A stretch of 64,000 nt of DNA from Chloroflexota bacterium (GTDB lineage: Bacteria; Chloroflexota; Limnocylindria; P2-11E): the NCBI GenBank assembly GCA_005883625.1, contig VBDU01000071.1, positions 89,439-153,438 of the forward strand. Reading direction: 5' to 3'. The notes under the pieces are model-generated. The model was not told the origin of the DNA. It was given only the letters and a program-made list of their open reading frames with translations, and searched no databases. Shown here piece by piece: positions 1,601 to 61,964 of this stretch. Both the position numbers and the translations under genes were made by a program. Numbering within the stretch: position 1 is the stretch's first letter; every line of letters starts with the position of its first letter.

Positions 1601-2266
1601 CTACTCCGGCGGTCGGTCCGCTCCGAGCGCGGCGACGATCTCCTTGATCTGTCCGTGGTGCTCGAACTCGTGCTCGAGGATGCGGCGCATGACCTTCCGC
1701 GTCGTCCACCGGCGCCCCATGACCGTGTGATCGAGCGCGGTCTCGGCGGGGTCCATCACGGTGAAGCGCTGGAACGCCATCCGGTGGACCGCCTGCAGGG
1801 TATTGAAAGGATCGTCCGGCCAGCGCTCGAGCTTCGCGAGGAATTCGGCCTCGCTCTCCATGATGTGCTCGAGCGCCTCTCGGACGCTCCACGTCGTCTC
1901 GGTCGGCTTGCGCTCGAGCTCGGCGGGTGAGAGGCCGCGGACGAGCGCGACCAGCGCGGATCGGCTCGCCTCCATCCGGTGGAGAAAGTCGCGCAGCTCG
2001 TGTTCCTCGATCGCGCCGACGTCCTCCGGCGCGACGCGATCGGCCGGGAGTGGCTTCACGGCGAACGTGTCCGGGTCGAGATCCTTCCAGTGCTCGACCG
2101 AGACGCCACGGGTCTCGAGCAGCTCGAGGTAGGCGCGGAACGCCCGGCGCGCGTTCGCGACCGCCTCGTCCTTCGTCGTTCCCGAGGCGACGCACCCGGG
2201 CAGGACCGGCACGTGCGCGAGCCAGTAGCTCTCGCCCCCCTGCCAGTAGATCGTCGGCGCGCTCAC
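1601..2266 (-). CDS. HicB-like (UPF0150) N-terminal domain fused to a DinB_2/YfiT-like metal-dependent hydrolase domain
   Basis: The GTG start overlaps the upstream regulator stop (GTGA, 2263-2266). N-terminus YWQGGESYWLAHVPVLPGCVASGTTKDEAVANARRAFRAYLE is HicB-like. C-terminus ...ILEHEFEHHGQIKEI is the DinB_2 His motif. The 343-aa track ORF includes an Arg-rich upstream extension that I exclude. Confidence 0.6.
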   Translation of the reverse strand: MSAPTIYWQGGESYWLAHVPVLPGCVASGTTKDEAVANARRAFRAYLELLETRGVSVEHWKDLDPDTFAVKPLPADRVAPEDVGAIEEHELRDFLHRMEASRSALVALVRGLSPAELERKPTETTWSVREALEHIMESEAEFLAKLERWPDDPFNTLQAVHRMAFQRFTVMDPAETALDHTVMGRRWTTRKVMRRILEHEFEHHGQIKEIVAALGADRPPE

Positions 2267-3012: not shown

Positions 3013-3849
3013 ATGTCGGCGGCGGACGTCTCAGCGCTGGTCATCGCACTTCGCGAGGGCGTCGAGATGACGCTCATCGTCGGGATCGTGCTCGCCTACC
3101 TAACGCGGATCGGCGCGCGGCGGGCGCATCGGTTCGTGTGGGCGGGCGTCGGCGCCGCCGCGATCGTGAGCCTCGCGTTCCTCGGCGTGCTGAACGCGCT
3201 CAACGCCGAGTTCAAGGGCACGACCGAGAAGATCTACGAGGGCGCGACGTTGCTGCTGGCCGCGGCATTCCTCACCTGGATGATCCTCTGGATGCTCGAG
3301 CGGTCGCGCTACCTCAAGACGGAGCTCCAGCGTGGCGTGCAGGAGGCGCTCGCGGCCGGCGGCGCGGTCTGGGGGCTCTTCCTGCTGGCCTTCTTCACCG
3401 TGGCGCGGGAGGGCGTGGAGACGGCGCTCCTGCTGTTCGCGGCTCCCGGGGAGGGGAAGCTCTTCGGCGCCGTCGTCGGCTTCGCGATCGCCATCGGGAT
3501 CGGCGTGCTCATCTACGTCTACGGCCGGCGGCTCGACCTGGCGACGTTCTTCCGGGTCACCGGGATCATGCTCATCGTCTTCGCCGCCGGGCTCGTGACG
3601 CACGGCGTGCACGAATTCGTCGAGGCTGGGCTCGCGGGCGGGCCGACGCTGTTCGATCTCGGCCAGGTGCTTCCCGACAGCGACGGCGTCGGCGCCGTGC
3701 TGCGGACACTGATCGGATACTCCGCCGACCCGACGCTCCTCGAAGGCGCGTCCTGGGGCGGTTACTTCGTGCTGGCCTGGGCGCTGGCGAAGGCGCGCGT
3801 GTTCGCGCGGCGCTTGGTACCGACGACGGAGGTCCGTCCCGCCCAATAG
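3013..3849 (+). CDS. FTR1-family high-affinity iron permease (EfeU-like)
   Basis: 278 aa polytopic protein with two REGxE motifs (REGVEM, REGVET) diagnostic for FTR1/EfeU. Confidence 0.85.
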
Positions 3850-3857
3850 ACTGACGA

Positions 3858-3900
3858 CTCGAGGGGTTCCGCCCCGAGTCGGGGGGCTCCGCCCCCCGGC
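3858..3900 (+). terminator. tandem GC-rich stem-loops immediately after the FTR1 stop
   Basis: GGGGTTCCGCCCC and GGGGGGCTCCGCCCCCC are two direct-repeat hairpins with G4-6 / C4-6 stems and 5-nt loops. No clear U-tract follows. Confidence 0.3.
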
Positions 3901-3919
3901 CCCCAAAGGAAGGACTGAT

Positions 3920-4939
3920 TTGTTCTCTCGTCAGATCGGCATCGACCTCGGCACGGCCAACGTCATCGTCTACGTCCGAGGAAAGGGCATCGTCCTCACG
4001 GAGCCGTCGGTCGTCGCCCTCGCGCACGAGAATGGCCAGAGCCGGCCGCGCATCGTCGCCGTCGGCGAGGAGGCGCGCCTGATGCTGGGGCGCACTCCTG
4101 GCAGCATCACGGCGCTACGTCCGATGCGCGACGGCGTCATCGCCGACTACGTGATCACCGAGTACATGCTGAAGTACTTCATCGACAAGACCTGCGGACG
4201 GATCCGCATCTTCCACCCCGAGCTCATGATCTGCGTGCCGTCCGGCGTGACGAGCGTCGAGCGCCGCGCGGTGAAGGACGCGGCGGTGCGGGCGGGGGCG
4301 CGGGACGCGCACCTCATCGAGGAGCCGCTCGCCGCGGCGATCGGAGCGAACATCCCGATCTCGGGTCCGTCGGGGAACCTGATCATCGACATCGGCGGCG
4401 GCACCGCGGAGATCGCGGTCATCTCGCTCGGCGGCATCGTCGTGTCGCGCAGCGTGCGCGCGGCGGGCAACAAGCTCGACGAGGCGATCGCGAGCTTCGT
4501 GCGCAAGCGCTACAACCTCATGATCGGCGAGCGCACGGCCGAGGACGTGAAGATCCAGATCGGCTCCGCGCTGCCGATGGACCCCGAGCTCACGATGGAG
4601 GTGCGCGGCCGGGATCTCATCGCCGGCCTCCCGCGCACGATCACGATCGGCAGCAACGAGATCACCGAGGCCATGGACCCCGTCCTCCAGCAGATCATCG
4701 CCTCGGTGAAGTCCGTGCTCGAGGAGACGCCGCCCGAGCTCGCATCGGACGTCATCGACAAAGGCATGGTCCTCTCCGGCGGAGGCGCGCTCCTGCGGAA
4801 CATGGACAAGCTCCTGACCCAGGTCACCGGGGTCGCCTGCTACGTGGCCGAGAACCCGCTCTACTGCGTCGCGAAAGGCACGGGTCTCGCGCTCGAGCAC
4901 CTCGACTTCTTCCGCAGAAGCCTCGTGGCGGTCCATTAG
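3920..4939 (+). CDS. mreB: rod-shape-determining protein MreB
   Basis: 339 aa with [13 protein letters not shown]...[15 protein letters not shown], the actin-like MreB signatures. RBS AAAGGAAGG lies upstream. Confidence 0.9.
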
Positions 4940-4942
4940 ACC

Positions 4943-4988
4943 GGGCGGGGAGCGAGGGCTCAGGGGAAGGGGCCGAGGGGCAGGGGAC
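4943..4988 (+). other. G-tract cluster (potential G-quadruplex) in the mreB / wecB intergenic region
   Basis: GGGCGGGGAGCGAGGGCTCAGGGGAAGGGGCCGAGGGGCAGGGGA contains seven G3-4 runs. Confidence 0.3.
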
Positions 4989-5022
4989 CCTCTCAGCGAA
5001 GCGTGCAGCGAGTGGAGCGAGC

Positions 5023-5835
5023 GTGCCGACCGAGCAGGGACGTGCCTCGAAACGAGCGGACGGCCCCACGAGCGAAGCGGCCGAAGGCAGCGGAGTGAGT
5101 AGGGATCGGAGAGTCGACGTGCTCGGCGTCGGCTTCGATCGGGTCGGCCTCCGCGGCGCCCTCGAGAGGGTCCTCGAGCGGCACGCGGCAGGGGAGCGGA
5201 CGTTCATCATCACCGCGAACCCGGAGTTCGTCATGCTCGCGCGCCACGATCGCGAGCTCGCGGGCGTCGCGCGCGAGGCCCATCTCGTCGTGGCGGACGG
5301 GGCCGGCATCCTCGTCGCCTCGCGTCTTCTCGGCGATCCGCTGCCCGCGCGGGTCCCTGGCCGTTTCCTCGTGCAGGCGATCCTCCCGCGTCTCGCCGCG
5401 CTCGGTGCACCGGTGTTCCTCCTCGGCGCCGGGCCCGGCGTCGCCGATCGCGCGGCCGAGACGCTCCGCCGTCGCGTCCCCGGCATCCGCATCGCGGGGA
5501 CGGACACGGGGTCGCCGGACGACGATGCGACTGTCGCGCGCGTGGCGGCAGCGCGTCCGCGCGTGCTCCTCGTCGCCTACGGCATGCCGCGCCAGGAGCG
5601 CTGGCTCGCGCGGAACCTTCCGCGGCTCGAGTCGGTCAAGGTCGCGATCGGCGTGGGCGGCGTGTTCGACCAGCTCGCCGGCCGCGTGCGCCTGCCTCCG
5701 CGCCTCGTGCACGCGCTCGGGTTCGAGTGGCTGTGGCGCCTCGCGTTCGAGCCGCGCCGCTGGCGCCGCCAGCGCGTTCTCCCACTCTTCGTCGCCCACG
5801 TCCTCCTCGAACGCGCGCGTCACGGCGCGCGATGA
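5023..5835 (+). CDS. WecB/TagA/CpsF-family glycosyltransferase (GT26; UDP-ManNAc / polyprenyl-PP-GlcNAc transferase type)
   Basis: VLGVGFDRV...FIITANPEFVM...VAYGMPRQERW...IGVGGVFD is the WecB/TagA family pattern. Start could be ATG 5023 or GTG near 5098. ATGA overlap with the next gene. Confidence 0.75.
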   Translation: MPTEQGRASKRADGPTSEAAEGSGVSRDRRVDVLGVGFDRVGLRGALERVLERHAAGERTFIITANPEFVMLARHDRELAGVAREAHLVVADGAGILVASRLLGDPLPARVPGRFLVQAILPRLAALGAPVFLLGAGPGVADRAAETLRRRVPGIRIAGTDTGSPDDDATVARVAAARPRVLLVAYGMPRQERWLARNLPRLESVKVAIGVGGVFDQLAGRVRLPPRLVHALGFEWLWRLAFEPRRWRRQRVLPLFVAHVLLERARHGAR

Positions 5836-6926
5836 AGCTCGCGCTCGCGCACGAGTACTTCAGCGCCCGCGGCGGCGCCGAGCGGGTCGTCGACGTGCTC
5901 CATGGGATGTGGCCCGAGGCGCCCGTCTACACGTTCTTCCACGACCGCCGCCGCTACGGCCGCCTCGACGGCTGGGATCTGCGGACGAGCTACCTGCAGC
6001 CCGTCGCGCTCGGTGGCGGCCTGCACCGGCTGCTGCTCCCGTTGTACCCGAACGCCGCTCGCTCGCTGCGCGTCGGAGCGGAGTTCGACGTGGCGCTCGT
6101 CTCGACGAGCGCGTTCATCAAGGGCCTCGCGCTCTCCGACCGCACCGTCGAGGTCGCGTACTGTCACTCGCCGACGCGGTACCTCTGGGACTGGGCGGAG
6201 CGCTATCTCGAGGAGGAGGTGCCGGCCCCGCTGCAGCCGGTCGTGCGCGAATTACAGGCCCGGCTGCGAGAGACCGATCTCGCGTTCGCGTCGCGCGTTG
6301 ACCGCTGGATCGCGAACTCGCGCGCGGTCGCGGAGCGCATCGCGCGGTACTACGGTCGCGAGAGCGAGATCGTGCATCCCGCCGTCGACGTCGACGCGTT
6401 CGCCGCGAGCGGCCAGCGCGGCGATTTCTGGCTCTTCGTCGGCCGGCTGTCGGCGTACAAACGGGCCGACCTCGCGGTGAGCGCGTTCAACGAGCTGGGC
6501 CTGCGCCTGCTCGTGGTCGGTGGGGGCCGCGAGCGCGACCGCCTCGAGCGCCTGGCCCACGAGAACGTGGTGTTCGCCGGCCGCGCCGACGACGCGACAC
6601 TCCGCGACCTCCTCGCGTCGGCGCGCGGCCTCGTCTTCCCGGCCGAGGACGACTTCGGGCTGGTGTGCGTCGAGGCGCTCGCCTCCGGTGCGCCCGTCGT
6701 CGCGCTCGCCGCGGGCGGCGCGCCGGACATCGTCCGCGACGGCGAGGACGGCGCGCTGTTCGCGCATCCCGAGGCCGGCGAGGTGGCGGACGCCGTCCTC
6801 CGTGTCGAACGCGGATCGTTCGATCCGCGCGCGTTGCGCGAGTCCGCGCGCAGGTTCGATGTGTCACGATTCCGCGACCGCGTGCGCGCGATCGTCGATG
6901 ACGCTTATCGCAAAGGAAGACCTTGA
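5832..6926 (+). CDS. GT4 (GT-B fold) glycosyltransferase
   Basis: EDDFGLVCVEALASGAPVVA is the GT1/GT4 EX7E-region motif. ATG overlaps the upstream stop (ATGA). Confidence 0.8.
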   Translation: MKLALAHEYFSARGGAERVVDVLHGMWPEAPVYTFFHDRRRYGRLDGWDLRTSYLQPVALGGGLHRLLLPLYPNAARSLRVGAEFDVALVSTSAFIKGLALSDRTVEVAYCHSPTRYLWDWAERYLEEEVPAPLQPVVRELQARLRETDLAFASRVDRWIANSRAVAERIARYYGRESEIVHPAVDVDAFAASGQRGDFWLFVGRLSAYKRADLAVSAFNELGLRLLVVGGGRERDRLERLAHENVVFAGRADDATLRDLLASARGLVFPAEDDFGLVCVEALASGAPVVALAAGGAPDIVRDGEDGALFAHPEAGEVADAVLRVERGSFDPRALRESARRFDVSRFRDRVRAIVDDAYRKGRP

Positions 6927-7618
6927 ACGAACACGACCGACGCATCCGCATCGACATGCACACGCATTCGGAGTACTCGCCCGACAGCCGCACGCCGCTC
7001 GCGGAACAGGCCCGGGCGGTCCGTGCGGCGGGCCTCGACGTCGTCTGCGCGACCGACCACAACGTCATCGCCGGCGCGCTCCGGCTGCGCGAGATGGCTG
7101 AGGGCTTCCGCGTCATCGTCGGCGAGGAGATCAGCACGCGCGACGGCGAGCTGATCGGGCTCTTCCTCGAGCGCGAGATCCCGCGCGACCTCACCGGCGA
7201 GGAGACGATCGCCCGGATACGCGAGCAGGGCGGCGTGGTCGTCGTGCCGCATCCGTTCAGCCGGAACCGCATGTATCACCTGCGGCGAGAGGCGCTGGAT
7301 CGGCTCTGGCCGAAGGTCGACGCGATCGAGGTGTTCAACGCGCGCGAGGCGTTCGCCGGCGACAACCGCCGCGCCGCCGTCTACGCGGCGGAGCGCGACC
7401 TCGCCGGCGCCGCCGGAAGCGACGCGCACCGGCCTGCCGAAGTGGGCCGGGCGTACGTCGAGATGGCCGACTTCGCCGGCCGCGACGATTTCGTCGCGGC
7501 CCTCCGCGCCGGCACCGCCCAGGGCACGCTCTCGGGAACGCGCGTACACGTCCTCACGCGCTACGACCGCATCCGCAAGTGGCTCGGACGACGGAAGACC
7601 GCGAGCGACGTCCGCTGA
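6923..7618 (+). CDS. PHP-domain metal-dependent phosphoesterase
   Basis: IDMHTHSEYSPD...VVCATDHN are PHP His motifs; 231 aa. TTG start overlaps the upstream stop (TTGA). Confidence 0.7.
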   Translation: MNEHDRRIRIDMHTHSEYSPDSRTPLAEQARAVRAAGLDVVCATDHNVIAGALRLREMAEGFRVIVGEEISTRDGELIGLFLEREIPRDLTGEETIARIREQGGVVVVPHPFSRNRMYHLRREALDRLWPKVDAIEVFNAREAFAGDNRRAAVYAAERDLAGAAGSDAHRPAEVGRAYVEMADFAGRDDFVAALRAGTAQGTLSGTRVHVLTRYDRIRKWLGRRKTASDVR

Positions 7619-8655
7619 CCGCACCCGGGCGGGCGCACGTCGAGGACCCGAGCATCGAGGCGCTCGCATCCGCCGCCGGACGCACCGACGAGCTCGCCGT
7701 CCGTCGCCAGCTCTTCGGCTGGCGTGAGGTCATATCGACCGTCATCCCCGTCCTCCTCATCGTGTACTTCGCGCGGAACGTCGACTTCGGCCAGGCGCTC
7801 GCGACGATCCGCGGCTCGAATCCCCTCTGGGTGCTCACGGCGCTCGTCGTCTACTACATGTCGTTCCCGGTGCGGGCGATCCGCTGGGCGCGACTGCTCC
7901 GCGAAGGCGGCACGCGGATCGGCGGTGGCGATCTCCTCGAGATCCTCCTCCTCGGCTGGTTCGTCAACTGTCTCGTGCCCGCCAAGCTCGGCGACCTCTA
8001 CCGCAGCTACCTCGTGAAGCGGCGTTTCGGCGTGTCGCTCTCGCGGACCGTGGGCGTCGTGGTCGCGGAGCGACTCCTCGACCTGTTCGCGGTCTTCGGC
8101 CTTCTCATCGTGGTCGGCTACATCGCGTTCGGTCGCACGGTCCTTCCCGATCTCACCCTCATGTACGTCTCGGCCGTCGCGCTCGGCGTCCTCATCGTCG
8201 TCGGGTTCATCGCGCTCTACGCGGTCGCGCCGCGCATCGCCCATCTCTTCCCCGGCGAGGTGCGCCGCATCGGCCGTCTCTTCCGCGAGGGCGTCGTGCA
8301 CAGCTTCCGCGCGCTACCGGTCGCCGGTCCGCTGACGCTCCTCGTGTGGTTCTTCGAAGCGGGACGCCTCATGTGCGTGCTCGCCGCCCTCGGGCTCACC
8401 CTTCCACCGTCGCAGGTCGTGTTCGTCGCCGTCGCGTCATCGCTCCTCACGACCGTCCCGCTCACGCCCGCGGGCTTCGGCTTCGTAGAGATCGCGATGG
8501 TGTACGTCCTCAGCGAGGCGTTCGGGCTTCCGCAGCACGATGCCGTCGCGGTCGCGGTCCTCGACCGCACGGTGAGCGTGTTCTCGCTCGTCGCCGTCGG
8601 CGGCGTGCTCTATCTGCGCACGCAGCGCACGGAGCGGATCGGCGCGGGCCGGTGA
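7579..8655 (+). CDS. flippase-like / lysylphosphatidylglycerol-synthase-TM (UPF0104) family membrane protein
   Basis: Polytopic membrane protein with the family pattern, often linked to glycosyltransferase loci. Start ambiguous: GTG 7579 gives a 40-nt overlap, while CTG 7615 would make a CTGA overlap. Confidence 0.6.
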   Translation: MARTTEDRERRPLTAPGRAHVEDPSIEALASAAGRTDELAVRRQLFGWREVISTVIPVLLIVYFARNVDFGQALATIRGSNPLWVLTALVVYYMSFPVRAIRWARLLREGGTRIGGGDLLEILLLGWFVNCLVPAKLGDLYRSYLVKRRFGVSLSRTVGVVVAERLLDLFAVFGLLIVVGYIAFGRTVLPDLTLMYVSAVALGVLIVVGFIALYAVAPRIAHLFPGEVRRIGRLFREGVVHSFRALPVAGPLTLLVWFFEAGRLMCVLAALGLTLPPSQVVFVAVASSLLTTVPLTPAGFGFVEIAMVYVLSEAFGLPQHDAVAVAVLDRTVSVFSLVAVGGVLYLRTQRTERIGAGR

Positions 8656-10154
8656 GCGGCGCGCGGGCGCTCGTCCTGCTCTCGCTCGCGCTCGTGGCCT
8701 TCCGCCTCGCGTCCGCCGCGCTCGTCGTGGTCCAGCCTGGGTTCACCGACGCGTTCTATTACGCGAGCGTCGCGCGGCGTCTCGCGCACGGCGACGGCCT
8801 GACCGCCGATTTTGTCTGGAACTTCATCGAGGCCCCGAATTTCGCGCCGCTTCCCGTGCCCAGCCATCGCTTCTGGATGCCGCTCACCTCGGTCGTGCAG
8901 GCCGTGGGGATCGTCGCGCTCGAGCCGGCGCTCGGGACGTTCCGCGCGGCGCAGGCCGCGATCGTCGCGGTCGGCGCGTTCGTGCCGGCCGCGGCGTACC
9001 TCGCCGCACGCGCGATCGGCGGATCGTCGCGCGCGGCGCTGGTCGCGGCGGCGCTCACCGGCATCGGCGGCGGCGCGTTCGCGCCGGCCTGGGTGACGCT
9101 CGATTCGTTCGCGATCGCGGCGCTCGTGGGCACCCTCTTCTTCGTCGCCTTCGCGCGCGCCGCGGTCGGCGACGTCCGCGCGGGTGCGCTCGGCGGTCTG
9201 TGCGTGGGCCTCCTGTTCCTCGCGCGCGCGGAGGGCGCGCTCTTCGGCGTCGCCCTGCTCTGGCTCGCCGCGCGGGCCGGCTCGCGGCGCGCCGGCCTGG
9301 CGGGGAGCCTCGTCGCGCTCGCGATCGGCGGCGCCTGGCTCGCGCGGGGCGTTTCGCTCGGCGCGTCGCCGGACCTCATGGGGCGGACGGCGCTGCTCGC
9401 GCGCTACGAAGACTTCTTCGCGATCCGGCCGACCGGCACCGCGGATCTCGCGACCGCCGTCGGCGTGCGGGTCGCGGCACTGGCGTCCGACCTCGGCCTC
9501 GTCGTCATCAGCCTCGTGCTGTTCCTCGTCGTCCCGCTCGCGCTCGCGCTTCGCGCGCGGTGGCGGCTCCCGGCCGTCCGCGCCTTCGCCGGCCTCGCGC
9601 TCCTTCTCTACCTCGTCGAGAGCCTCGTCTGGACCCTGCACGCGACACGCGGGTCGTACTTCCACTCGCTCGCCGCGCTGTTCCCGTTTGCCATGGCGCT
9701 CGCCGCCGTGGGCGGGGAGATCTTCTTCGCGGCACGGGCGCCGGGGCTGGCGCGCGTGGCTGTCGCCGGGACGCTCGGCGCGTCGTCGATCCTCGCGCTG
9801 TTCGCGCTCGCGCTGTGGGGAAGCACGTACAACGCGTCGTACAAGGCCCGCTCGGCGGCGCTCGACGCGATCCCGCCGGGGCCGTTCCTCGCGATCGACG
9901 CCGCCGCCTGGCGCTGGATCGCGGATCGGCCCGTGGTGGTGACGCCCGCGGACGGGCCCGACGTGGCGTCCTGTGCCGCGGCGCGCTACGGGGTGCGCAG
10001 CGTGGTCCTCGAGCCCGCGCATTTCTCGAGCTACGACGACCTCTACCGCGGGGGGTCCCTCCCCTGGCTCGGACCGCCGACCGACCGCGACGGCATCCGC
10101 GTCTATCCGATCCGCGGCCAGCTGGGCTGCTCGATCCTGGAGGGCCGCGGTTGA
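8652..10154 (+). CDS. ArnT/PMT-family GT-C glycosyltransferase (GT39/GT83-like)
   Basis: GTGA overlap start. First-loop acidic motif QPGFTDAFYYASVARRL resembles the DE..Y motif of the family. About 12 TM helices with a C-terminal periplasmic domain. Confidence 0.65.
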   Translation: MSGARALVLLSLALVAFRLASAALVVVQPGFTDAFYYASVARRLAHGDGLTADFVWNFIEAPNFAPLPVPSHRFWMPLTSVVQAVGIVALEPALGTFRAAQAAIVAVGAFVPAAAYLAARAIGGSSRAALVAAALTGIGGGAFAPAWVTLDSFAIAALVGTLFFVAFARAAVGDVRAGALGGLCVGLLFLARAEGALFGVALLWLAARAGSRRAGLAGSLVALAIGGAWLARGVSLGASPDLMGRTALLARYEDFFAIRPTGTADLATAVGVRVAALASDLGLVVISLVLFLVVPLALALRARWRLPAVRAFAGLALLLYLVESLVWTLHATRGSYFHSLAALFPFAMALAAVGGEIFFAARAPGLARVAVAGTLGASSILALFALALWGSTYNASYKARSAALDAIPPGPFLAIDAAAWRWIADRPVVVTPADGPDVASCAAARYGVRSVVLEPAHFSSYDDLYRGGSLPWLGPPTDRDGIRVYPIRGQLGCSILEGRG

Positions 10155-11461
10155 CCGCGACGCGGCCCGCGCGCTCGTACCTGCCCATCGCCGCGCTCGC
10201 GCTCCTCGCGATCGCCCTCACCGCGGCGTACGCCGCCGCGCTCGGCCCCGACCCGGAGCCACGGCGCGACGACCAGGTCCAGTACCTCGCGCTCGCGCGG
10301 GGCCTGATCGAACGCGGCGAATTCACGCGGGCGGGAGCGGGCGAGCCGTTCGTGCCCGAGCCGCTGCGCTTTCCGGGCTATCCGCTGCTCCTTGCCGCCG
10401 TCTGCCGCACCGTCGGGTGCGAGCGCATCGTGGCCGTGCAGGCGGTGCTGCTCGCGCTCGCGGTGGTGCTGACCGTCCGCTTCGGCGCGCCGGCCCTGGG
10501 GGGGCGTCGCGCGCTCGTGGCCGGCGCTCTCGTCGCCGCCTATCCGACCTTCGCGTACTTCGCGGCGCTCACGCTCTCGGAGATCGCCGCGACCGTGCTC
10601 CTCGCCGGTGCCTGCGTCGCCTTCGTCGCGATGGCCGAACGCCCGTCGGCGCCCCGTGCGCTCGTCGCCGGCGCGCTGCTCGGCGCGCTCGCGCTCACGA
10701 GGCCGTTCTTCCTTCCGCTGCCGCTGCTGCTCGCGGCGCTCGCGCTCGGTTCGCGGCGTCGTTCCGCTCGTTCGCTCGCGCCGGCGCTCCTGCTGGCGAT
10801 CGCGGCCTTCGGCGCGGTCCTCGCGCCACAGGTCGCGTATTCCCTGACGAGCTTCGGCCGTCCGCTCGTCGGCAGTCTCGGAACGCAGCTCTGGCTGGGG
10901 TATTTCCAGGGCCTCGCGCCGGCGGACCTCGACGACTTCCAGCGCGCGGAGGCCGACGCCGGGCGCGCGGCCATCGCGCGCCTCGAGAACGCCGCCGACC
11001 GGCGGACGCAGGCCTACGCGTTCGTCGCGCTCGACGACGAACTGCGCGCCCGGGCGCTCGTGCTCATGGCGCACGATCCCCTCGGGTATCTCGCGCGCGG
11101 CGCGGTGCGTTCGGTCGTGCTGTGGGCCGGCGAGGTGCCGGCGCGTGACGCCGGTGCGACGCTCCCCGACGCGGTGCGGTCCGCGTGGCTCGCCCTCGAG
11201 CTCTCGTTCCTCGGCGTCGGCCTCGTGGGCTCGGTGCGGCTCGCGCGGCGCGGCGATCTTCGGGCGCTCGTGCCGCTCGCGCTCGTCCTCTTCGTGTGGG
11301 CGCTCTCGTTCCCGCTCTGGGCGGAGGGCCGCTTCTCGCTGCCGGCGAAACCGCTCCTCGCGATCGGCGTGGTCGCCGCGCTCAGCGCGCCGCGGCCCGG
11401 CGGACCTTCCGAAGCTCGTCCGGGCGGACGAGCGGCGCGAGGCGGAGCATCTCGCCCATAG
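10151..11461 (+). CDS. second ArnT/PMT-family GT-C glycosyltransferase
   Basis: TTGA overlap start. RRDDQVQYLALARGL is the first-loop motif. Polytopic. Confidence 0.6.
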   Translation: MTATRPARSYLPIAALALLAIALTAAYAAALGPDPEPRRDDQVQYLALARGLIERGEFTRAGAGEPFVPEPLRFPGYPLLLAAVCRTVGCERIVAVQAVLLALAVVLTVRFGAPALGGRRALVAGALVAAYPTFAYFAALTLSEIAATVLLAGACVAFVAMAERPSAPRALVAGALLGALALTRPFFLPLPLLLAALALGSRRRSARSLAPALLLAIAAFGAVLAPQVAYSLTSFGRPLVGSLGTQLWLGYFQGLAPADLDDFQRAEADAGRAAIARLENAADRRTQAYAFVALDDELRARALVLMAHDPLGYLARGAVRSVVLWAGEVPARDAGATLPDAVRSAWLALELSFLGVGLVGSVRLARRGDLRALVPLALVLFVWALSFPLWAEGRFSLPAKPLLAIGVVAALSAPRPGGPSEARPGGRAARGGASRP

Positions 11462-11476
11462 ACTCCTGCGCGGGAC

Positions 11477-12877
11477 GTGAGGACGATCACCGCGGCGTTC
11501 TTCGCGTCGCTGGCCGCCGCGGCCGCGGCGAGCGCGCCGGCATCGGATCCGGACCTCTTCTGGCATCTCGCGAGCGGCGCGTGGATGCTCGACCACGGAC
11601 GCCTCCTCGACCAGGACGTCTTCTCGTTCACGAGGACGGGCGCGACCTACCAGACCGGTCAGTGGCTCGGCGAGGTGGTGCTCGCGTTCGTCTACCGGCA
11701 GGCGAGCTGGCTGGGCGTCGACGTGCTGCGTGCGGTCCTCGTCGGTGCGGCGGCGTTCTTCGTGGCGCGCGCCACCGCCCGCGTGCAACCGCACATCGGC
11801 TGGGCGGCGGTCCCGATCCTCGCGACGATCCTCGTCTCGCGCACGATCTGGGGCGACCGGCCGCAGCTCTTCACGCTCGCGCTCGTCCCGGCGGTCTTCG
11901 ATCTTCTTCTCGCCGTCCGACTCGAGCGTCGTCCGCGGCTCCTCTGGATCCTGCCGCCGCTCTTCGTGCTCTGGGGAAACTTGCACGGCGCGTTCGCGAT
12001 CGGGCTCGTGCTGGTGACGGTGTTCGCGATCGAGGCGGTGCTCGTGCGCGAGAGCGCGCTGCGCCGGCCGCTCGTCCTCGCGCTCGCCGCCTCCGTCGTG
12101 GCGAGCGCGCTCAACCCGGCGGGAGTCCGCGCGCTCGCGGCCGCCTCCGCCTACGCGTCGACGTCAGGCGCCTACATCGTCGAGGAAGGACCGCTCGACG
12201 TGCTTACCGGTCCCGGCGTCGTGTTTGCCGCGATGCTCCTCGTAGCCCTGGGCATCGCGCTCACGCTTGGCCGCGAGGCCATCGCCCGGCGGATCGGCGC
12301 GCCGGTCCTCTGGCCCGGCCTGGTGATCGCGTTCGCGCTCCTCGGGCTCGCGATCCAACGCCAGGTCACGTTCGCGTGCGTCGTGATGACGCCGTTCCTC
12401 GCCGCGGGGATCCCGGCCGTCCTCGGCCGGCGCCCGCTCGCCCCCGTGGCGCTGCCTCGGGCGATGGTGGTCGCCGCGTGCGCGCTCTTCGCGCTCGCCG
12501 TCGCGACGGTCGCGGCGGTCGCGGCCCCGCGCGCTCCGGATCTCGCGGCATACCCCGCGGACGCGCTCGACGCCCTCGCGACCGCTCACGGAAACCTGCT
12601 GAACGAATATGACTGGGGCGGCTACCTCATCTTCGCGAGCCCGTCGCACCCCGTGTTCATCGACGGCCGCGGCGCGACGCTCTTCGTGCCCGGCGTCCTC
12701 GACGATTTCGAGGAGGCCGTGCGCCTGCGCCCCGCCTACCACGACGTCCTCGCGAAACACGGCATCGCGCTCGTGCTGCTGCGGCCGGATCGTCCCCTCA
12801 CGGTGGCGCTCCGTGAGGACGGCTGGCGCGCGCTCGCCGAGCGATCGGGGCGTTGGGTCCTCCTCGCGCGACCGTGA
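11477..12877 (+). CDS. polytopic membrane protein, GT-C-like; tandem paralog A
   Basis: 466 aa with DLFWHLASG, WGNLHGAF, EYDWGGYLIF and VFIDGRGATLFVP motifs shared with the next gene. Confidence 0.6.
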   Translation: MRTITAAFFASLAAAAAASAPASDPDLFWHLASGAWMLDHGRLLDQDVFSFTRTGATYQTGQWLGEVVLAFVYRQASWLGVDVLRAVLVGAAAFFVARATARVQPHIGWAAVPILATILVSRTIWGDRPQLFTLALVPAVFDLLLAVRLERRPRLLWILPPLFVLWGNLHGAFAIGLVLVTVFAIEAVLVRESALRRPLVLALAASVVASALNPAGVRALAAASAYASTSGAYIVEEGPLDVLTGPGVVFAAMLLVALGIALTLGREAIARRIGAPVLWPGLVIAFALLGLAIQRQVTFACVVMTPFLAAGIPAVLGRRPLAPVALPRAMVVAACALFALAVATVAAVAAPRAPDLAAYPADALDALATAHGNLLNEYDWGGYLIFASPSHPVFIDGRGATLFVPGVLDDFEEAVRLRPAYHDVLAKHGIALVLLRPDRPLTVALREDGWRALAERSGRWVLLARP

Positions 12878-14271
12878 GGCCTTCGCTCGTCGTCCCGCTG
12901 GCCGCCGGTGCCGTCTTCGGCGCGCTCGCGACGATCCAGGCCGTGAGCGACACCGACCTCTGGTGGCATCTCGCGACGGGACAGCAGACGCTCGCCCACG
13001 GCCTCGCCCGCACCGACGCGTTCGCCTGGACCATCGTGGGCCGTCCGGTCCTGCTCGACCAATGGCTCGGCGACGTCCTCATCGCGCTCGCGTACGCCGC
13101 GGGGTCGTGGCACGGGGTGATCGCGCTCCGCGCGCTCGCGGTCGCCCTGCTCGTGACGCTCGTCGTCGGCGCGGCGCTCGCGGAGCGTCCGGGCCGTCCC
13201 CTCGTGGCGCTCCTCGCGGCGCTGCCGGCGATCATGCTCTCGCGCTCCGCGTACGGCGACCGTCCGCAGCTCGAGGGGTACGTCCTCTTCGCCGCGCTGA
13301 TCTGGCTGCTCCGGGCCGGACAGAAGGGATCGTTGCCGGCGCTCGTCGCGACCGCCCCGCTCCTCGCCCTGTGGTCGAACCTCCACGGATCGAGCGCGCT
13401 CGGACTCGGCCTGATCCTCGTCGTGCTCGCGGAGCGCGCGCTGCGCGACGGCGCCTTCCGCCGCACCGCCGCGGTGCTCGCGGTGGCCGCGCTCCTCGCG
13501 ACGCTCCTCACGCCTGCGGGCTTCGGATCGTGGGCCTCGTCGGGCGGTCACTTCCTCGCGCCGCCGCGCTACATCGAGGAGGAGGGCGTGCCGAACCTGC
13601 GCAGCGTGCCGGGCCTGATCTTCGCCCTTGTCCTCGCGCTCGTCCTGGGGACCGCGTTCCTCGGTCGCGGCGCGCGCCGCGCGGAGGCGGCGCTCCTGCT
13701 GCCGGTCGTGTTCGTCTCGCTCACCGCGGCGCGCCACATGCCGTTCTTCGCGATCGCGGCGGCCCCGTATCTCGCGGCGGAGGGGCCGGCGGCCCTCGCG
13801 TGGCTCGCGCGGCTCGCCGGCATCTCGGCCCGCGTCCCCGACGCGTCGCCGGCGCGGTCGTCGTGGCAGGTCGACGTCGCGGCCGCCGCGCTCGCGGCGC
13901 TCGTGCTCTCGGTCGCCGCCGCCGCGGCGCCGGGCGATCCGGATGAGTCCTTCTATCCGCGTGGCGCTCTCGCGGCCCTGCCGCGCGGTCCGGGGTTGCT
14001 GAACGCCTACGACTGGGGCGGCTGGCTCATTTGGAACGCACCCGATACTCCCGTCTTCATCGACGGCCGGCTCTTCCCGTTCGTGCCGGACGGGCTCGCG
14101 GACTACCGGAGCATCGTCGGCCTGCATTCGGACTGGCGCGCGGTCCTCGACCGGCGCGGCGTGCGGGCGCTCCTGCTCCGTCCGACCGATGCCGCTGCGG
14201 TGCGCGCGCGCGAGACGGGGTGGACCGTGGTCGCGAGCGGACCGGATTTCGTGCTGCTCGCGCGACCTTAA
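12853..14271 (+). CDS. polytopic membrane protein, GT-C-like; tandem paralog B
   Basis: DLWWHLATG, WSNLHGSS, AYDWGGWLIW and VFIDGRLFPFVP motifs. Alternative start GTG 12874 gives a GTGA overlap. Confidence 0.6.
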   Translation: MGPPRATVRPSLVVPLAAGAVFGALATIQAVSDTDLWWHLATGQQTLAHGLARTDAFAWTIVGRPVLLDQWLGDVLIALAYAAGSWHGVIALRALAVALLVTLVVGAALAERPGRPLVALLAALPAIMLSRSAYGDRPQLEGYVLFAALIWLLRAGQKGSLPALVATAPLLALWSNLHGSSALGLGLILVVLAERALRDGAFRRTAAVLAVAALLATLLTPAGFGSWASSGGHFLAPPRYIEEEGVPNLRSVPGLIFALVLALVLGTAFLGRGARRAEAALLLPVVFVSLTAARHMPFFAIAAAPYLAAEGPAALAWLARLAGISARVPDASPARSSWQVDVAAAALAALVLSVAAAAAPGDPDESFYPRGALAALPRGPGLLNAYDWGGWLIWNAPDTPVFIDGRLFPFVPDGLADYRSIVGLHSDWRAVLDRRGVRALLLRPTDAAAVRARETGWTVVASGPDFVLLARP

Positions 14272-14380
14272 TTCATATACTCCGCGCACGAAGGAGCCGA
14301 CCCGCCTACCACGAGACAGCGACGATCTCGACACGCAGTTCGACGCCATCGTCGACACGCTGCGTCGTGACGTCCGCCGT

Positions 14381-15283
14381 TTGCGCCAGCAGGTCGAACG
14401 CTTCGGGAAGGCCTACCACAAGCAGGCGGAGGCGCTGACCCGCCGTGCCGACACCGAGCTCGACGAGACGACCGCGCGTGCGAACCGCCGCCTCAAGCAG
14501 CTCCGGCTGGTCGTCCAGCACATCGAATCGACCGCGGCCTACCTCCTCGGCACCGGGATCGGTCCGGCGGAGCAGGTCGACGACGAGCAGATCGAGATGG
14601 CGCAGCGCGTCCTCGAGAGCCTCGAGGCCGAGCGCGAGCGGCTGTATCGCGACGTCCACGACGGGCCCGCGCAGGTCCTCGCGAACGCGATCTTCGAGGT
14701 CGAGTACCTCGAGCGCGTCGCCGAGCGGGCGTCGTCGGAGGTGCGGCAGACGCTCCGCTCCGAGCTGTCCGGCCTCAAGGGGCAGTTCCGCTCGTCGCTC
14801 GACTCGGTGCGCGCGATGATCTACGACCTTCGTCCCCCCGAGCTCAGCGAGCTCCCGCTCGCGGAGGCGATGCGCAACTACGGGAGCGAGTGGGAATCCC
14901 GCTGCGGTATCAAGGTCGCGAGCACGCTCGACACGGCCGAGACCGGCCTCACGCCTACGGCGGAGCTCGCGATATATCGCGTCATGCAGGAGGCCCTGCA
15001 GAACGTCCACAAGCACGCACGCGCGACGAGCGTCGGCGTCAACTGGTCGCGCTCGAACCGGACCTGGGTGCTCCACGTCACCGACGACGGCGCCGGCTTC
15101 GACATCGTGAAGGCGGCGCGACGTCAGAAGTCGGTGGGGCTCCTCTCCATGCGCGAGCGCGCCGAGCTCATCGGCGGCACGCTGCAGATCCAGTCGACGC
15201 CCGGGAAGGGGACCGCGGTGACGCTGCTCCTTCCGACCGAACAGACGATGGAACGACTCCGGAAGGTGGAGGCCGATACGTGA
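14381..15283 (+). CDS. cytoplasmic HisKA_3 sensor histidine kinase (DegS-like, no TM); start uncertain
   Basis: H-box RDVHDGPAQ, N-box QEALQNVHKHA, G1 DDGAGFD and G2 GLLSMRERAELIGG are all present. Coiled-coil N-terminus. An AAGGAG site at 14291 has no canonical start within 80 nt; the first in-frame canonical start is TTG 14381. Confidence 0.6.
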   Translation: MRQQVERFGKAYHKQAEALTRRADTELDETTARANRRLKQLRLVVQHIESTAAYLLGTGIGPAEQVDDEQIEMAQRVLESLEAERERLYRDVHDGPAQVLANAIFEVEYLERVAERASSEVRQTLRSELSGLKGQFRSSLDSVRAMIYDLRPPELSELPLAEAMRNYGSEWESRCGIKVASTLDTAETGLTPTAELAIYRVMQEALQNVHKHARATSVGVNWSRSNRTWVLHVTDDGAGFDIVKAARRQKSVGLLSMRERAELIGGTLQIQSTPGKGTAVTLLLPTEQTMERLRKVEADT

Positions 15284-15984
15284 GCGAAAAGAGCGAGCGG
15301 GCGATCCGGATCCTGATCGCCGACGCCAGTCGGATCACGACCATGGGGATCCGTCAGGTGCTGGAGAAGGAACAGGACTTCGAGATCGTCGGTATCGCCG
15401 GCGACGGCGAGGAGGCCGTGGCGAAGACGAACGAGCTCGAGCCGGACGTCCTCGTCATCGAGGTCGACCTGCCCCGGCTGTCGGGCATCAAAGCGACCCA
15501 GCGCGTGCGGCGCGAGCTGCCCGCCGTCGGCGTCATCATCCTCACCGCCCAGGACCAGGAGCAGATCCTGTTCGAGGCCATCCGCGCGGGCGCGGCAGCG
15601 TATCTTCACAAGGACTGCGAGCCGACCGAGCTCGTCGACGCCATCCGCAAAGTGCGCAGCGGGCAGTTCATCATCAACGAGAAGATCTTCAGCCGGCCCG
15701 CCGTCGCGTCGAAGGTGCTCGCCGAGTTCCGCGAGCTCTCGGTGTACGGGCCGGGCTCGACGCACGTCTTCGCGCCGCTCTCCCCGCGCGAGGTGCAGAT
15801 CCTGGACAACATCGCCCAGGGCATGACGAACAAGGAGGTGGCGTACGCACTGGCCATCTCCGAGCAGACGGTGAAGAATCACATGTCGAGCATCCTGCGG
15901 AAGCTGTCGGTGAACGACCGCACGCAGGCCGTCGTCTACGCCATCCGGCAAGGGTGGATCAAGGGTCCGGAGATAGGCAATTGA
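15280..15984 (+). CDS. NarL/FixJ-family response regulator (REC + LuxR HTH)
   Basis: GTGA overlap start. Receiver motifs LIADAS..., VIEVDLP and T/K residues, with C-terminal LuxR HTH EVQILDNIAQGMTNKEVAYALAISEQTVKNHM. Confidence 0.85.
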   Translation: MSEKSERAIRILIADASRITTMGIRQVLEKEQDFEIVGIAGDGEEAVAKTNELEPDVLVIEVDLPRLSGIKATQRVRRELPAVGVIILTAQDQEQILFEAIRAGAAAYLHKDCEPTELVDAIRKVRSGQFIINEKIFSRPAVASKVLAEFRELSVYGPGSTHVFAPLSPREVQILDNIAQGMTNKEVAYALAISEQTVKNHMSSILRKLSVNDRTQAVVYAIRQGWIKGPEIGN

Positions 15985-17015
15985 GCACGGACGCGCCGAG
16001 CGTCATCGCCGAAGTCACGTCCGAACGGCAGAAGATGACCGCGGAGATACGCGAGCTCGACCTGCTCGTCGAATCGACACAGACCGAGGTGAGCCGCCTC
16101 AAGGCCCGCGAGGACCAGACGAAGGCGAAGGTCGACGAGGTGCGCACCAGCGCCGCGGACGCGAAGCGCGAGGAGATCTTCGGCGCGTCCGACGAGTACA
16201 CGGTCGCTCTCGGCCGGCGCATGACGATGGAGGGACAGCTCGCGACGCTCCAGGGGAAGCGCAAGCTCCTCGATCGGAGCGCGCAGCTCCTCGCCATGGC
16301 CGCACGGCAGCTGGAGGAATATTCGGTGCCGCCCCTCCCGGCGGATGCGAGCCCCGTGATCGACGAGGGCAAGCTCCTGCAGGCGGTCGTCGACACGCAG
16401 GAGGCCGAGCGCAAGCGCATCGCCAGACAGGTCCACGACGGACCGGCGCAGGCCATGGCGAACGTCGTCCTGCAGTCGGAGATCAGCGAGCGTCTCTTCG
16501 AGGTCGACCAGCAGCGCTCTCGTACCGAGCTCGCCTCGCTCCGTCAGATGGTGAACAAGACCTTGCAGGAGCTGCGCGGCTTCATCTTCGAGCTGCGGCC
16601 GATGATCCTCGACGATCTCGGGCTCGTGCCGACGCTCCGCCGGTACGTCCAGACGCTCATCGACAAGCATGGCGTGCGCATCGACTTCTCGAGCACCGGG
16701 CGCGACCGCCGTCTCCCGTCCGACGACGAGGTCGCGATCTTCCGGCTCATCCAGGACTCGCTCGTCGAGCGCATCGAGAAGGCGCAGGCGAAGGACCTCG
16801 TTCTCGGGATGGCCTGGAAGGAGGACACCCTCGACATCCTCCTGCAGAGCGACGGCAAGGAGCTCCCACCCGATGGCGAGCTGCAGTCGGGGCTGCGCCG
16901 GAGCGAGCGGCTCGAGCTCCTGCGCGGCGAGTCCACGCACGAGACGCGCGCTGACGGTACCGTCCTGCTGACCGTGAAGGTCCCCGTCCGCTCCGCCCCG
17001 CAAGTCGTCACGTGA
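15981..17015 (+). CDS. second cytoplasmic HisKA_3 kinase-like protein with degenerate ATP-binding domain
   Basis: TTGA overlap start. The H-box ARQVHDGPAQ is retained, but the N-box Asn/His are lost (SLVERIEKAQA), the G1 box is lost (SDGKELPPDG) and the G2 box is lost. Confidence 0.7.
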   Translation: MSTDAPSVIAEVTSERQKMTAEIRELDLLVESTQTEVSRLKAREDQTKAKVDEVRTSAADAKREEIFGASDEYTVALGRRMTMEGQLATLQGKRKLLDRSAQLLAMAARQLEEYSVPPLPADASPVIDEGKLLQAVVDTQEAERKRIARQVHDGPAQAMANVVLQSEISERLFEVDQQRSRTELASLRQMVNKTLQELRGFIFELRPMILDDLGLVPTLRRYVQTLIDKHGVRIDFSSTGRDRRLPSDDEVAIFRLIQDSLVERIEKAQAKDLVLGMAWKEDTLDILLQSDGKELPPDGELQSGLRRSERLELLRGESTHETRADGTVLLTVKVPVRSAPQVVT

Positions 17016-17584
17016 GGTCTCAGGGCGCTCCGCCCCCCGAGACCCCCCTCGCGTCGCCCCCCGAGACCCCCCGAACTCGCGAGCTCACGACGGACCAGGT
17101 CGCGGAATACCTCGAGGCCACCTGCGCGCTGGTCGAGGCCGAGCTGCGCGCGCTCGGCGACGACGCCTCCTGGCACTTCGATCCGCGGGAGTGGTGCGCG
17201 AATCAGGTGGTCGGTCACGTGGTGGAGGCCGAGAAGCGCGGCTTCGCCGGCCGGATCCGCGAGATCCTCGAGGGCAAGCGACGGACGGCCGCGTGGGACC
17301 AGGCCGCGGTCGCGAAGGAGCGCGACGATTGCGCGCGGATCGCGCAGAGCCTCTGGATGGAGTTCATGGGCGTACGCAACGGCTCACTCCAGCTCGTGCG
17401 CTCGCTGGGGCCCGGCGACCTCGGGAAGGGCATCGAGCACCCGAAGGCCGGGCGCCTGACCGTGCGCGATCTGCTCCACGAGTGGGTGCACCACGACCGC
17501 AACCACACCAAGCAGCTCCTCGCGCTCGCGCAGGAGCGCGTGTGGCCGCACATGGGGAACGCGCAGAGCTTCAAGGGCGAATAG
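17012..17584 (+). CDS. DinB/YfiT-family (DinB_2) putative metal-dependent enzyme
   Basis: GTGA overlap start. HEWVHHDRNHTKQL is the DinB_2 His triad. Confidence 0.65.
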   Translation: MRSQGAPPPETPLASPPETPRTRELTTDQVAEYLEATCALVEAELRALGDDASWHFDPREWCANQVVGHVVEAEKRGFAGRIREILEGKRRTAAWDQAAVAKERDDCARIAQSLWMEFMGVRNGSLQLVRSLGPGDLGKGIEHPKAGRLTVRDLLHEWVHHDRNHTKQLLALAQERVWPHMGNAQSFKGE

Positions 17585-28148: not shown

Positions 28149-28160
28149 ACTCCCGCACTC

Positions 28161-55918: not shown

Positions 55919-55934
55919 CCGGCCGGGTCCGGCG

Positions 55935-61919: not shown

Positions 61920-61964
61920 CTGGAGACCGATGCCCCGTAACCCCCCAGAAACGACTGTTACCGC

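Follow-up and report, generated by a model that had tools for sequence, protein, structure and literature searches.

A conserved mreB-linked gene block of Candidatus Limnocylindria predicted to assemble a lipid-linked envelope glycoconjugate

A block of glycan genes attached to mreB

We analysed a 64-kb stretch of DNA (hereafter the window; G+C ~71%) from an uncultured soil Chloroflexota bacterium of the class Limnocylindria, in which positions 3920-14271 hold nine co-directional genes on the + strand. The first is mreB; the others encode four putative glycan enzymes or transporters and four polytopic membrane proteins, numbered M1 to M4 in gene order. With moderate confidence, we propose that these genes form a conserved operon of Candidatus (Ca.) Limnocylindria, a class of the monoderm Chloroflexota, that assembles a lipid-linked envelope glycoconjugate in two compartments. 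Its parts are known kinds of enzyme and its logic is known, whereas the combination is new: a glycosyltransferase (GT) of family GT26, a GT4, a PHP hydrolase, a stand-alone UPF0104 protein and several unclassified GT-C enzymes, attached to mreB and to a cytoplasmic two-component trio. Searches of the literature turned up no account of this locus or of envelope genes in Limnocylindria.

Raw lists of open reading frames (ORFs) were useless because of the high G+C content of the window. Genes were called by a frame plot of codon-position GC (GC3) together with inspection of start codons, which gave the following map (aa, amino acids; nt, nucleotides; TM, transmembrane):

3920-4939, + strand: mreB, actin-like rod-shape protein, 339 aa (PF06723 464 bits; TIGR00904 492 bits)
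5023-5835, + strand: tagA, WecG/TagA/CpsF-family GT26 glycosyltransferase, 270 aa (or 238 aa from a start at 5119)
5832-6926, + strand: GT4 (GT-B fold) glycosyltransferase, 364 aa; its ATG lies within the tagA stop overlap of 4 nt
6923-7618, + strand: PHP-domain metal-dependent hydrolase, small and soluble, 231 aa
7579-8655, + strand: UPF0104 / LPG_synthase_TM protein, homologue of the MprF flippase domain, 358 aa
8652-10154, + strand: M1, predicted GT-C-fold membrane glycosyltransferase with a C-terminal alpha/beta domain, 500 aa; core gene
10151-11461, + strand: M2, putative PMT_2-type (ArnT/PMT-like) GT-C, 436 aa; accessory gene
11477-12877, + strand: M3, predicted GT-C fold, ~11 TM helices and a C-terminal globular domain, 466 aa; core gene
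12874-14271, + strand: M4, paralogue of M3, 465 aa; accessory gene

This map agrees with public gene calls for an identical contig from a metagenome (ENA ERZ28573602, scaffold_98), and its coordinates match those of an earlier sequence-only reading of the same DNA. That reading had described a co-directional run with mostly 4-nt overlaps, and this is what we see: start and stop codons overlap by 4 nt at five junctions (tagA/GT4, GT4/PHP, UPF0104/M1, M1/M2 and M3/M4), the PHP and UPF0104 genes overlap by 40 nt, and M2 and M3 are separated by a gap of 15 nt. Translational coupling from tagA to M4, with five 4-nt overlaps and one of 40 nt, counts in favour of a common pathway. The unbroken + strand run spans 3013-17584 and goes past 14271; its downstream extension comprises the genes HK1, RR and HK2 (histidine kinase, response regulator and a second kinase-like protein) and a DinB_2 gene that ends at 17584, again with 4-nt overlaps. 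A scan for promoters and terminators, uninformative at 71% GC, could place none.

The family calls of MreB, WecG/TagA, GT4, PHP and a flippase-like protein made in the sequence-only reading were correct by Pfam and NCBIfam. Its remark that mreB stands at the head of the cluster without mreCD is true here and also in each related locus long enough to include that position. No homologue of MreC, MreD, PBP2 or RodA is present in the 64-kb window, and in all related loci that include mreB the gene directly after it is tagA, not mreC and mreD as in an mreBCD-type operon.

The four polytopic proteins are assigned to the GT-C fold

All four membrane proteins classify as GT-C enzymes and none falls in a non-glycosyltransferase family, although the basis of the assignment differs between them. 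M2 is a putative GT-C glycosyltransferase by its match to Pfam PMT_2 (PF13231, 28.6 bits, just over the cut-off of 26.1), a family also matched by 11 of 12 M2 orthologues (best E 1e-9). The label of ArnT/PMT-like enzyme, which had been given to both M1 and M2, thus holds at sequence level for M2 and fails for M1, which matches no sequence family. Indeed, M1, M3 and M4 show no Pfam match at E<=0.1 and no NCBIfam match.

M1 and M3 are GT-C glycosyltransferases according to their predicted structures. The M1 model, of moderate quality (pLDDT, the predicted local distance difference test, of 68.7), matches the folds of ALG12 (21.9), AglB (20.9), Pmt4 (19.4), AftA (18.6) and ArnT (17.9). The best structural matches of M3 are STT3/AglB/PglB (family GT66) and DPY19, and they extend over the TM core as well as the C-terminal globular domain. 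M4 is assigned to the same fold through its paralogy to M3, with which it shares 39% identity over 455 aa (BLAST, E 1e-47 to 1e-55) and the motifs D26xD28, DRPQ, NLHG, YIEE, YDWGG and IDGR. M3 and M4 had been described as two further polytopic paralogs; they are paralogous to each other and not detectably related to M1 or M2. BLAST shows no kinship among the four proteins beyond the M3/M4 pair, hhalign shows none between the M1 family and the M3/M4 family, and sequence searches of the PDB with profiles of M1, M2, M3/M4 and a 109-sequence superfamily returned chance hits only.

Moreover, all four proteins carry an acidic residue just past the first TM helix: D33 in M1, D41 in M2, D24xD26 in M3 and D26xD28 in M4. 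M1 D33 is kept in at least 95% of 60 sequences, M2 D41, in the first outer loop, is invariant in 12 sequences, and M3 D26 stays invariant when 109 distant family members are included. By the helix order of the model, every invariant polar residue of M3 lies on the extracytoplasmic side, as do D24/D26, D127, H170, E236, R295 and its C-terminal domain. By analogy with other GT-C enzymes, polyprenyl-phosphate or polyprenyl-diphosphate sugars are the putative donors of M1 to M4; the window holds no donor synthase gene.

Cytoplasmic enzymes and a candidate flippase

GT26 enzymes of the WecG/TagA family are known to act on polyprenyl-diphosphate-linked sugars. The member encoded here matches PF03808 (177 bits) and TIGR00696 (130 bits, cut-off 69), with conservation starting at residue 30 among 42 orthologues; it is not a TarA equivalog, since it reaches 145 bits with that model against a cut-off of 350. 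The GT4 protein matches Glyco_trans_1_4 (89 bits), Glycos_transf_1 (87 bits) and Glyco_transf_4 (33 bits), reaches no NCBIfam equivalog cut-off, and has as its closest solved relative the WbaZ-type mannosyltransferase 2f9f (E 4e-17). The PHP protein matches PHP (36 bits), PHP_C (60 bits) and the CehA/McbA metallohydrolase domain NF038032 (87 bits, cut-off 80). Its H13, H15, E69, H110, D167 and H169 stand at the expected metal-ligand positions and are conserved in 54 orthologues, and its matches to solved structures are weak, to the TrpH/YciV-type phosphoesterases 3e0f and 2yb1. We also considered a CpsB/YwqE-type tyrosine phosphatase and rejected it: there is no BY-kinase nearby, and the matches are to PHP_C and CehA/McbA, and weakly to the TrpH type, instead. 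None of these three proteins has a TM segment, and the lack of any hydrophobic segment in the PHP protein (maximum 19-residue hydropathy 1.11) indicates a cytoplasmic location.

The UPF0104 protein has ~8-10 hydrophobic segments and matches PF03706 (176 bits) and the 'flippase-like domain' model TIGR00374 (124 bits, cut-off 43). The protein is very highly conserved, and so is its N-terminal cytoplasmic extension, which supports the start at 7579. On these family matches, it is a candidate translocase for a lipid-linked intermediate.

The gpgSDF operon of Pseudomonas aeruginosa encodes a GT4 synthase, a deacetylase and a predicted UPF0104 flippase, and hexSDF of Clostridioides difficile is its analogue (PMC12713373). 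As in these operons, genes for a GT4, a soluble hydrolase and a UPF0104/COG0392 flippase-like protein are consecutive and co-directional here, where they also overlap, and the trio resembles glycolipid head-group operons as much as a polymer pathway. The product could then be a membrane-anchored lipoglycan or glycolipid, along the logic of phosphatidylinositol mannosides, lipomannan and lipoarabinomannan or of gpgSDF/hexSDF: the GT4 would act on a glycerolipid or phosphoinositide-type anchor, the PHP protein would remove a phosphate or another group, the UPF0104 protein would flip the product, and M1 to M4, together with a GT87-family GT-C encoded next to the block, would extend it from polyprenyl-phosphate sugars. 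The GT4 is weakly similar to PimB', and its best NCBIfam match is a GlcNAc-PG synthase model (GlcN_PG_synth), though at 55 bits against a cut-off of 480. The clustering of a GT87, the family of PimE, with several GT-Cs also recalls mycobacterial lipoglycan synthesis, for which PimA, PimB', PimE and the Mpt enzymes are established. Nevertheless, we regard a lipoglycan as quite unlikely. Known glycerolipid-anchored pathways have no place for a GT26 WecG/TagA enzyme, and genes for inositol, phosphatidylinositol or polyprenyl-phosphomannose synthases are not found nearby. The middle gene encodes a COG3233 deacetylase in gpgSDF and a PHP metallohydrolase here, the flippase model GlcN_PG_flip gives only E 0.54 (cut-off 320 bits), and the trio here has a GT26 gene on one side and four GT-C genes on the other.

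Conservation of the block in Limnocylindria

A scan of species-representative genomes, in which gene order was mapped by tblastn, yielded 78 related loci (labelled L with a number, as are the more distant ones below), nearly all from Limnocylindria. This class is uncultured, with genomes of ~2.4 Mb and 69% GC (PMC10608941). The gene order is FTR1, MreB, TagA, GT4, PHP, UPF0104, M1, [M2], M3, [M4], HK1, RR, HK2, DinB_2, (GT87), SpoIID, and the block is syntenic in ~75 Limnocylindria genomes, with M3 orthologue identity down to ~40%. M1 and M3 are present in every related locus; their homologues are all named 'hypothetical proteins' and come from Chloroflexota / Ca. Limnocylindria metagenomes. 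M2 is found in ~12 of the 78 loci, at times displaced or inverted, and M4 occurs in 0 to 2 copies, being absent in ~14 loci and duplicated in ~10. These changes in the copy number of M2 and M4 happen inside the block. In L010, L058, L063, L064 and L066, M1 lies ~50-130 nt after the PHP gene.

The M3/M4 family beyond the class

When 1.84 billion cluster representatives were searched with an M3/M4 profile, 28,743 clusters (50% identity) matched at E<=1e-3, of which 3,897 reach E<=1e-30; they are found in Chloroflexota, Acidobacteriota, Bacillota and other phyla. Sixty distant full-length M3-like proteins were assigned to no Pfam or NCBIfam family; distant members from Chloroflexia, Thermomicrobiales, Anaerolineae and Pyrinomonadaceae are named 'hypothetical protein', and one cluster member 'MFS family permease'. 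The motifs DxDxWWHL, RPQ, LWxNLHGGF, IxEWxSPDFH, an invariant Arg, YxWGGYLIW and VFIDGRxDxYG are found family-wide. We read ten distinct genomic contexts of distant members, a small sample:

L077: M3-like gene with Wzy_C, Wzx, Bac_transf and GT87
L084/L085, 10001-11641: M3-like gene with GT2, GT4, PMT_2, Wzy_C-TPR and Bac_transf, then a Flp/Tad locus
L083, 7410-8906: M3-like gene directly beside a Flp/Tad pilus operon
L089, 10001-11557: M3-like gene directly beside a Flp/Tad pilus operon
L078, 6764-8281: M3-like gene beside a TadB/C-like gene pair
L091, 8357-17875 (GC 49%): PMT_2, M3-like, GT87, PMT_2, M1-like (hmmsearch E 4e-39) and an HK2-like HisKA_3 kinase
L092, 10001-21326 (GC 53%): M3-like gene and GT87 immediately upstream of mreB-mreC-(mreD)-pbp2-minCDE-rodA
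L082/L086: M3-like genes near HK1-like and RR-like genes (Thermomicrobiales, Chloroflexia)
L090, L093: uninformative contexts

In these contexts M3-like GT-Cs are associated with envelope glycan genes and the elongasome and, which was not expected, with Tad pili. L091 has the family set of the window without the TagA, GT4, PHP and UPF0104 genes, and L092 is a second, independent tie of the M3-like GT-C family to MreB. In the 3 to 4 contexts out of 10 with Flp/Tad genes, these encode Flp pilins, a prepilin peptidase, RcpC and TadZ/A/B/C; in L089 the M3-like gene starts 6 nt past the last tad gene and is followed by genes for an unannotated 495-aa membrane protein and a GT2.

These data bear on the idea that the genes do not serve one pathway at all and are held together by inherited order in a streamlined genome, with a role in cell shape for MreB, in one polymer for TagA and the GT4, and in unrelated glycosylations for the GT-Cs. 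FTR1, DinB_2 and SpoIID, which have no obvious link to glycans, are just as syntenic as the block, M2, M4 and the UPF0104 gene can be lost or moved, and neither a promoter nor a terminator was located. We nonetheless consider this very unlikely, given that the 4-nt overlaps join consecutive genes of the block and that subsets of the same families co-localise again in L091 and L092, at 49-53% GC. The re-association of these families in lineages of 45-69% GC argues that the Limnocylindria block is a functional unit and not a frozen gene order.

Resemblance of M3 and M4 to oligosaccharyltransferases

That the nearest folds of M3 and M4 are protein-modifying GT-Cs opens a protein-glycosylation reading, which was absent from the sequence-only reading. 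M3 was compared with oligosaccharyltransferases (OSTs). The hallmarks of OSTs are 13 TM helices, DXD motifs on outer loops EL1 and EL2, a TIXE/SVSE motif carried by the flexible EL5, and WWDYG, DGGK and DK/MI motifs in the C-terminal domain (PMC8342417). In M3, EL1 carries D24-P-D26 (loop placement from the helix order of the model), and the second outer loop carries WGD127RPQ, with a single acidic residue in place of the DXD of OSTs. An outer loop modelled with low confidence, where pLDDT dips at residues 220-240, contains Y-I-V-E236 (I-x-E-W in the family consensus). R295 is invariant and is a look-alike of PglB R375, and the C-terminal domain holds E-Y-D-W-G-G at 377-382, with I-D-G-R beginning 13 residues later. 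The PglB counterparts are T-I-M-E319, R375, W-W-D-Y-G and, 13 residues on, I-D-G-G-K. The DK/MI motif was not identified in M3.

For profile comparisons, the Campylobacter lari PglB sequence was checked against 3rce and a Campylobacter PglB alignment was built for hhalign. A low-stringency alignment, which is not significant, places E236/E319, R295/R375, YDWGG/WWDYG and IDGR/IDGG in register, and when the halves of M3 and PglB were run separately the best local alignments, likewise not significant, fell on the same regions. The M3 family profile against the PglB family gave a probability of 0.7% (E 0.087), and against the single PglB sequence 0.3%; no hhalign run of M3 against PglB, whole or in halves, was significant (probability 0.3-0.7%, E 0.09-0.24). 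Pfam STT3 (PF02516) matched neither M3 nor M4 nor any of the 60 distant family members, among which TIGR04154 gave one faint match. Because no hhalign run was significant, we did not file M3 and M4 under GT66, even though the motifs line up.

Overall, M3 is like STT3, AglB and PglB in its predicted fold and carries putative counterparts of their motifs, namely a DxD in the predicted first outer loop and collinear look-alikes with the 13-residue YDWGG-IDGR spacing of PglB. It differs from them in its length (466 aa against 590-870 aa), in its AlphaFold2 model with ~11 membrane helices before the C-terminal domain instead of 13, in its degenerate motifs, and in that M3 and M4 stand beside other GT-Cs and not in a pgl/agl-type locus.

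Were the block to glycosylate proteins, TagA and the GT4 would build a short oligosaccharide linked to undecaprenyl-diphosphate, the UPF0104 protein would flip it, and M3/M4 would act as divergent OSTs on envelope proteins (surface-layer, pilin or wall-associated), with M1, M2 and the GT87 adding single sugars. The collinear motif look-alikes (EL1 DxD, Y-I-V-E236, R295, YDWGG and IDGR), of which the last four fall in register with PglB in the low-stringency alignment, and the Flp/Tad loci that adjoin some distant M3-like genes would fit such a role. It seems rather unlikely to us, as none of the sequence comparisons is significant, the predicted helix number falls short of that of OSTs and neither a pilin gene nor an obvious gene for an acceptor is present in the Limnocylindria block. 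Moreover, the Flp pilins encoded beside distant M3-like genes lack N-x-S/T sequons (Ser is the last residue of two of them), and en bloc transfer takes one GT-C, against two to five here. As a tentative extension, which we hold to be doubtful, M3 and M4 might represent a very large, unannotated bacterial branch of OST-like GT-Cs, distantly related to STT3/AglB/PglB, that glycosylates surface proteins, namely Flp/Tad pilins in many lineages and, in Limnocylindria, an envelope protein produced in pace with the wall growth that MreB guides; tagA-GT4-PHP-UPF0104 would then be a new protein-glycosylation pathway.

A proposed two-compartment pathway

Returning to the lipid-linked envelope glycoconjugate that we favour, its assembly would start at the inner face of the membrane, where the GT26 WecG/TagA-type enzyme and the GT4 would add sugars to a membrane-lipid-linked primer. 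Because GT26 enzymes act on polyprenyl-diphosphate-linked sugars, this primer is most likely undecaprenyl-diphosphate-N-acetylglucosamine, with an initiating enzyme that would be encoded elsewhere. The soluble PHP hydrolase would then trim a substituent of the intermediate, most likely a phosphate ester, and the UPF0104 protein would move the lipid-linked glycan to the outer leaflet. There, M3, together with M4 if present, would most likely pass the flipped glycan to its final acceptor (a wall polymer, a protein or a lipid) in an OST- or ligase-like manner, and M1, M2 and the neighbouring GT87 would add more sugars from polyprenyl-phosphate donors. From the tight linkage to mreB, we suggest that the product is deposited along the growing side wall; the probable role of the HK1-RR-HK2 trio is to control the system or to report on it.

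Several points weigh against this proposal. An initiating phosphoglycosyltransferase, a GT2 polyprenyl-phosphate-sugar synthase, an LCP ligase and a conventional exporter are all missing from the window, so that half of the proposed pathway must be encoded elsewhere. Given that GT4 and UPF0104 proteins also serve glycolipid head groups, the carrier may not be a polyprenol. The closest solved relatives of the PHP protein act on nucleotides, and its substrate here is putative. The UPF0104 gene is absent in five loci (L010, L058, L063, L064 and L066), which implies that the candidate flippase is dispensable or encoded elsewhere in that sub-lineage. The flanking FTR1 and SpoIID genes are equally syntenic, and class-wide synteny alone could be inherited order. 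Finally, we know of no stand-alone UPF0104 protein for which flippase activity has been demonstrated, and the flippase role of GpgF is only predicted (PMC12713373).

Comparison with known envelope glycan systems

The sequence-only reading had suggested a polyprenol-linked wall glycopolymer that is elaborated outside the membrane and is teichoic-acid-like or arabinogalactan-like. The general logic stands as the most economical reading, the polyprenol carrier and the identity of the polymer are unproven, and the likeness to these two polymers was not upheld. Wall teichoic acid and arabinogalactan, built on an undecaprenyl-diphosphate-N-acetylglucosamine-N-acetylmannosamine linkage unit, share with the block a GT26 WecG/TagA-family transferase. 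Mycobacterial arabinogalactan, with its Emb/Aft GT-Cs, also shares the succession of cytoplasmic steps and extracytoplasmic GT-C steps. A further likeness is that the block is physically linked to mreB; in Bacillus, wall-polymer synthesis is known to be connected with MreB. However, the window lacks the partner genes: it has no TagO/WecA, no TagB/F, no ABC or Wzx exporter, no LCP ligase, no UbiA/DprE-type donor pathway and no GT2 polyprenyl-phosphate-sugar synthase. Of the wall teichoic acid set, only the TagA-family gene is present, below the TarA cut-off, and TagO, TagB, TagF/TarL, TagGH and LCP are all missing from the Pfam assignments of the window; a Wzm/Wzt exporter is likewise lacking from the window. 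Because of these absences, we rejected a canonical teichoic-acid or arabinogalactan locus. The block differs, moreover, in its PHP hydrolase and UPF0104 protein, which the two pathways do not have at that place.

GT-C systems that are fed by a flipped lipid donor or by a dedicated flippase are well established (PMC11127046). Both GtrA/GtrB/GtrC and the system of a polyprenyl-phosphoribose synthase, a MATE flippase and GT136 resemble the block in that the donor is made inside, a small flippase follows and a GT-C acts outside. They differ in that the block has no donor synthase of the GT2 or phosphoribosyltransferase type, has a flippase candidate of another family, and has several GT-Cs instead of one.

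Regulatory genes and the rest of the window

Downstream of M4, the window encodes the regulatory trio and a fifth GT-C:

14381-15283, + strand: HK1, cytoplasmic HisKA_3 histidine kinase, 300 aa (or 364 aa from a start at 14189); HisKA_3 44.5 bits, HATPase_c 49.9 bits
15280-15984, + strand: RR, NarL/LuxR-type response regulator, 234 aa; Response_reg 84 bits, GerE 79 bits
15981-17015, + strand: HK2, second cytoplasmic HisKA_3 protein, 344 aa; HisKA_3 54.7 bits
17571-18716, - strand: GT87-family GT-C, 349-381 aa; PF09594 46 bits; convergent with the block

HK1, RR and HK2 make an unusual trio of kinase, regulator and kinase-like protein, all without TM segments and with coiled-coil-like N-termini. 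HK1 is syntenic in nearly all related loci, and an HK1-like kinase (37% identity) is encoded near M3-like genes in L082 and L086. RR is 72-95% identical across the class, with a 50%-identical regulator near the M3-like gene in L082. HK2 is 30% identical to HK1, Pfam finds no HATPase_c domain in it, and in L091 the GT-C genes are followed by one for a homologue over the full length (33% identity, E 5e-51). The GT87 gene holds the same position in ~14 related loci and also lies beside M3-like genes in L077, L091 and L092. A SpoIID gene is convergent with the + strand run.

DinB_2-superfamily genes flank the block at 1601-2266 (- strand), with a weak HicB-like N-terminal match, and at 17012-17584 (+ strand). 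Before mreB lie genes for a DtxR/IdeR-type iron repressor (2263-2907, - strand) and an FTR1 iron permease (3013-3849, + strand), the latter syntenic with mreB across the class. The remainder of the window consists of housekeeping genes, with two further regions to be mentioned. At 55906-59499 (- strand), an ORF of 1197 aa, of which the GC3 caller supported a part only, combines a receiver domain, an MshEN domain (of the type that binds cyclic diguanylate monophosphate) and a processive-type GT2. Upstream on the same strand, 59554-60534, 60677-61324 and 61395-63617 encode a GAF-HisKA_3 kinase, a NarL-type regulator and a 740-aa protein without Pfam match. This region is possibly a second, separately regulated exopolysaccharide synthase. 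At 24055-29746 (+ strand), genes for two tandem AA_permease_2 proteins of ~680 aa are followed by those for a universal stress protein and two TrkA-type gating proteins, which looks like a potassium or amino-acid transport module separate from the glycan block.

Significance for the Limnocylindria envelope and the GT-C families

Limnocylindria are abundant in soil and freshwater; to our knowledge, they have never been cultured and nothing is known of their envelope. Chloroflexota are thought to be monoderm, yet a second electron-dense layer has been seen (PMC6169038). An operon of ~10 kb that is attached to mreB and kept class-wide in genomes of ~2.4 Mb is a strong candidate for making the outer layer. 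Moreover, we know of many Gram-positive-type pathways for which no flippase of the lipid-linked glycan has been named, and the operon offers a candidate in the stand-alone UPF0104 protein.

The analysis also exposes two GT-C families without a Pfam or NCBIfam model, one of which is very large, resembles OSTs above all and lies repeatedly next to Tad pilus or elongasome genes in other phyla. Should the cautious reading hold, the block would be a further variant of lipid-linked glycan assembly. Should the OST-like reading hold, bacterial protein glycosylation would be much more widespread than is annotated; the basis for this prospect is the OST-like family, with its links to Tad pili and MreB.

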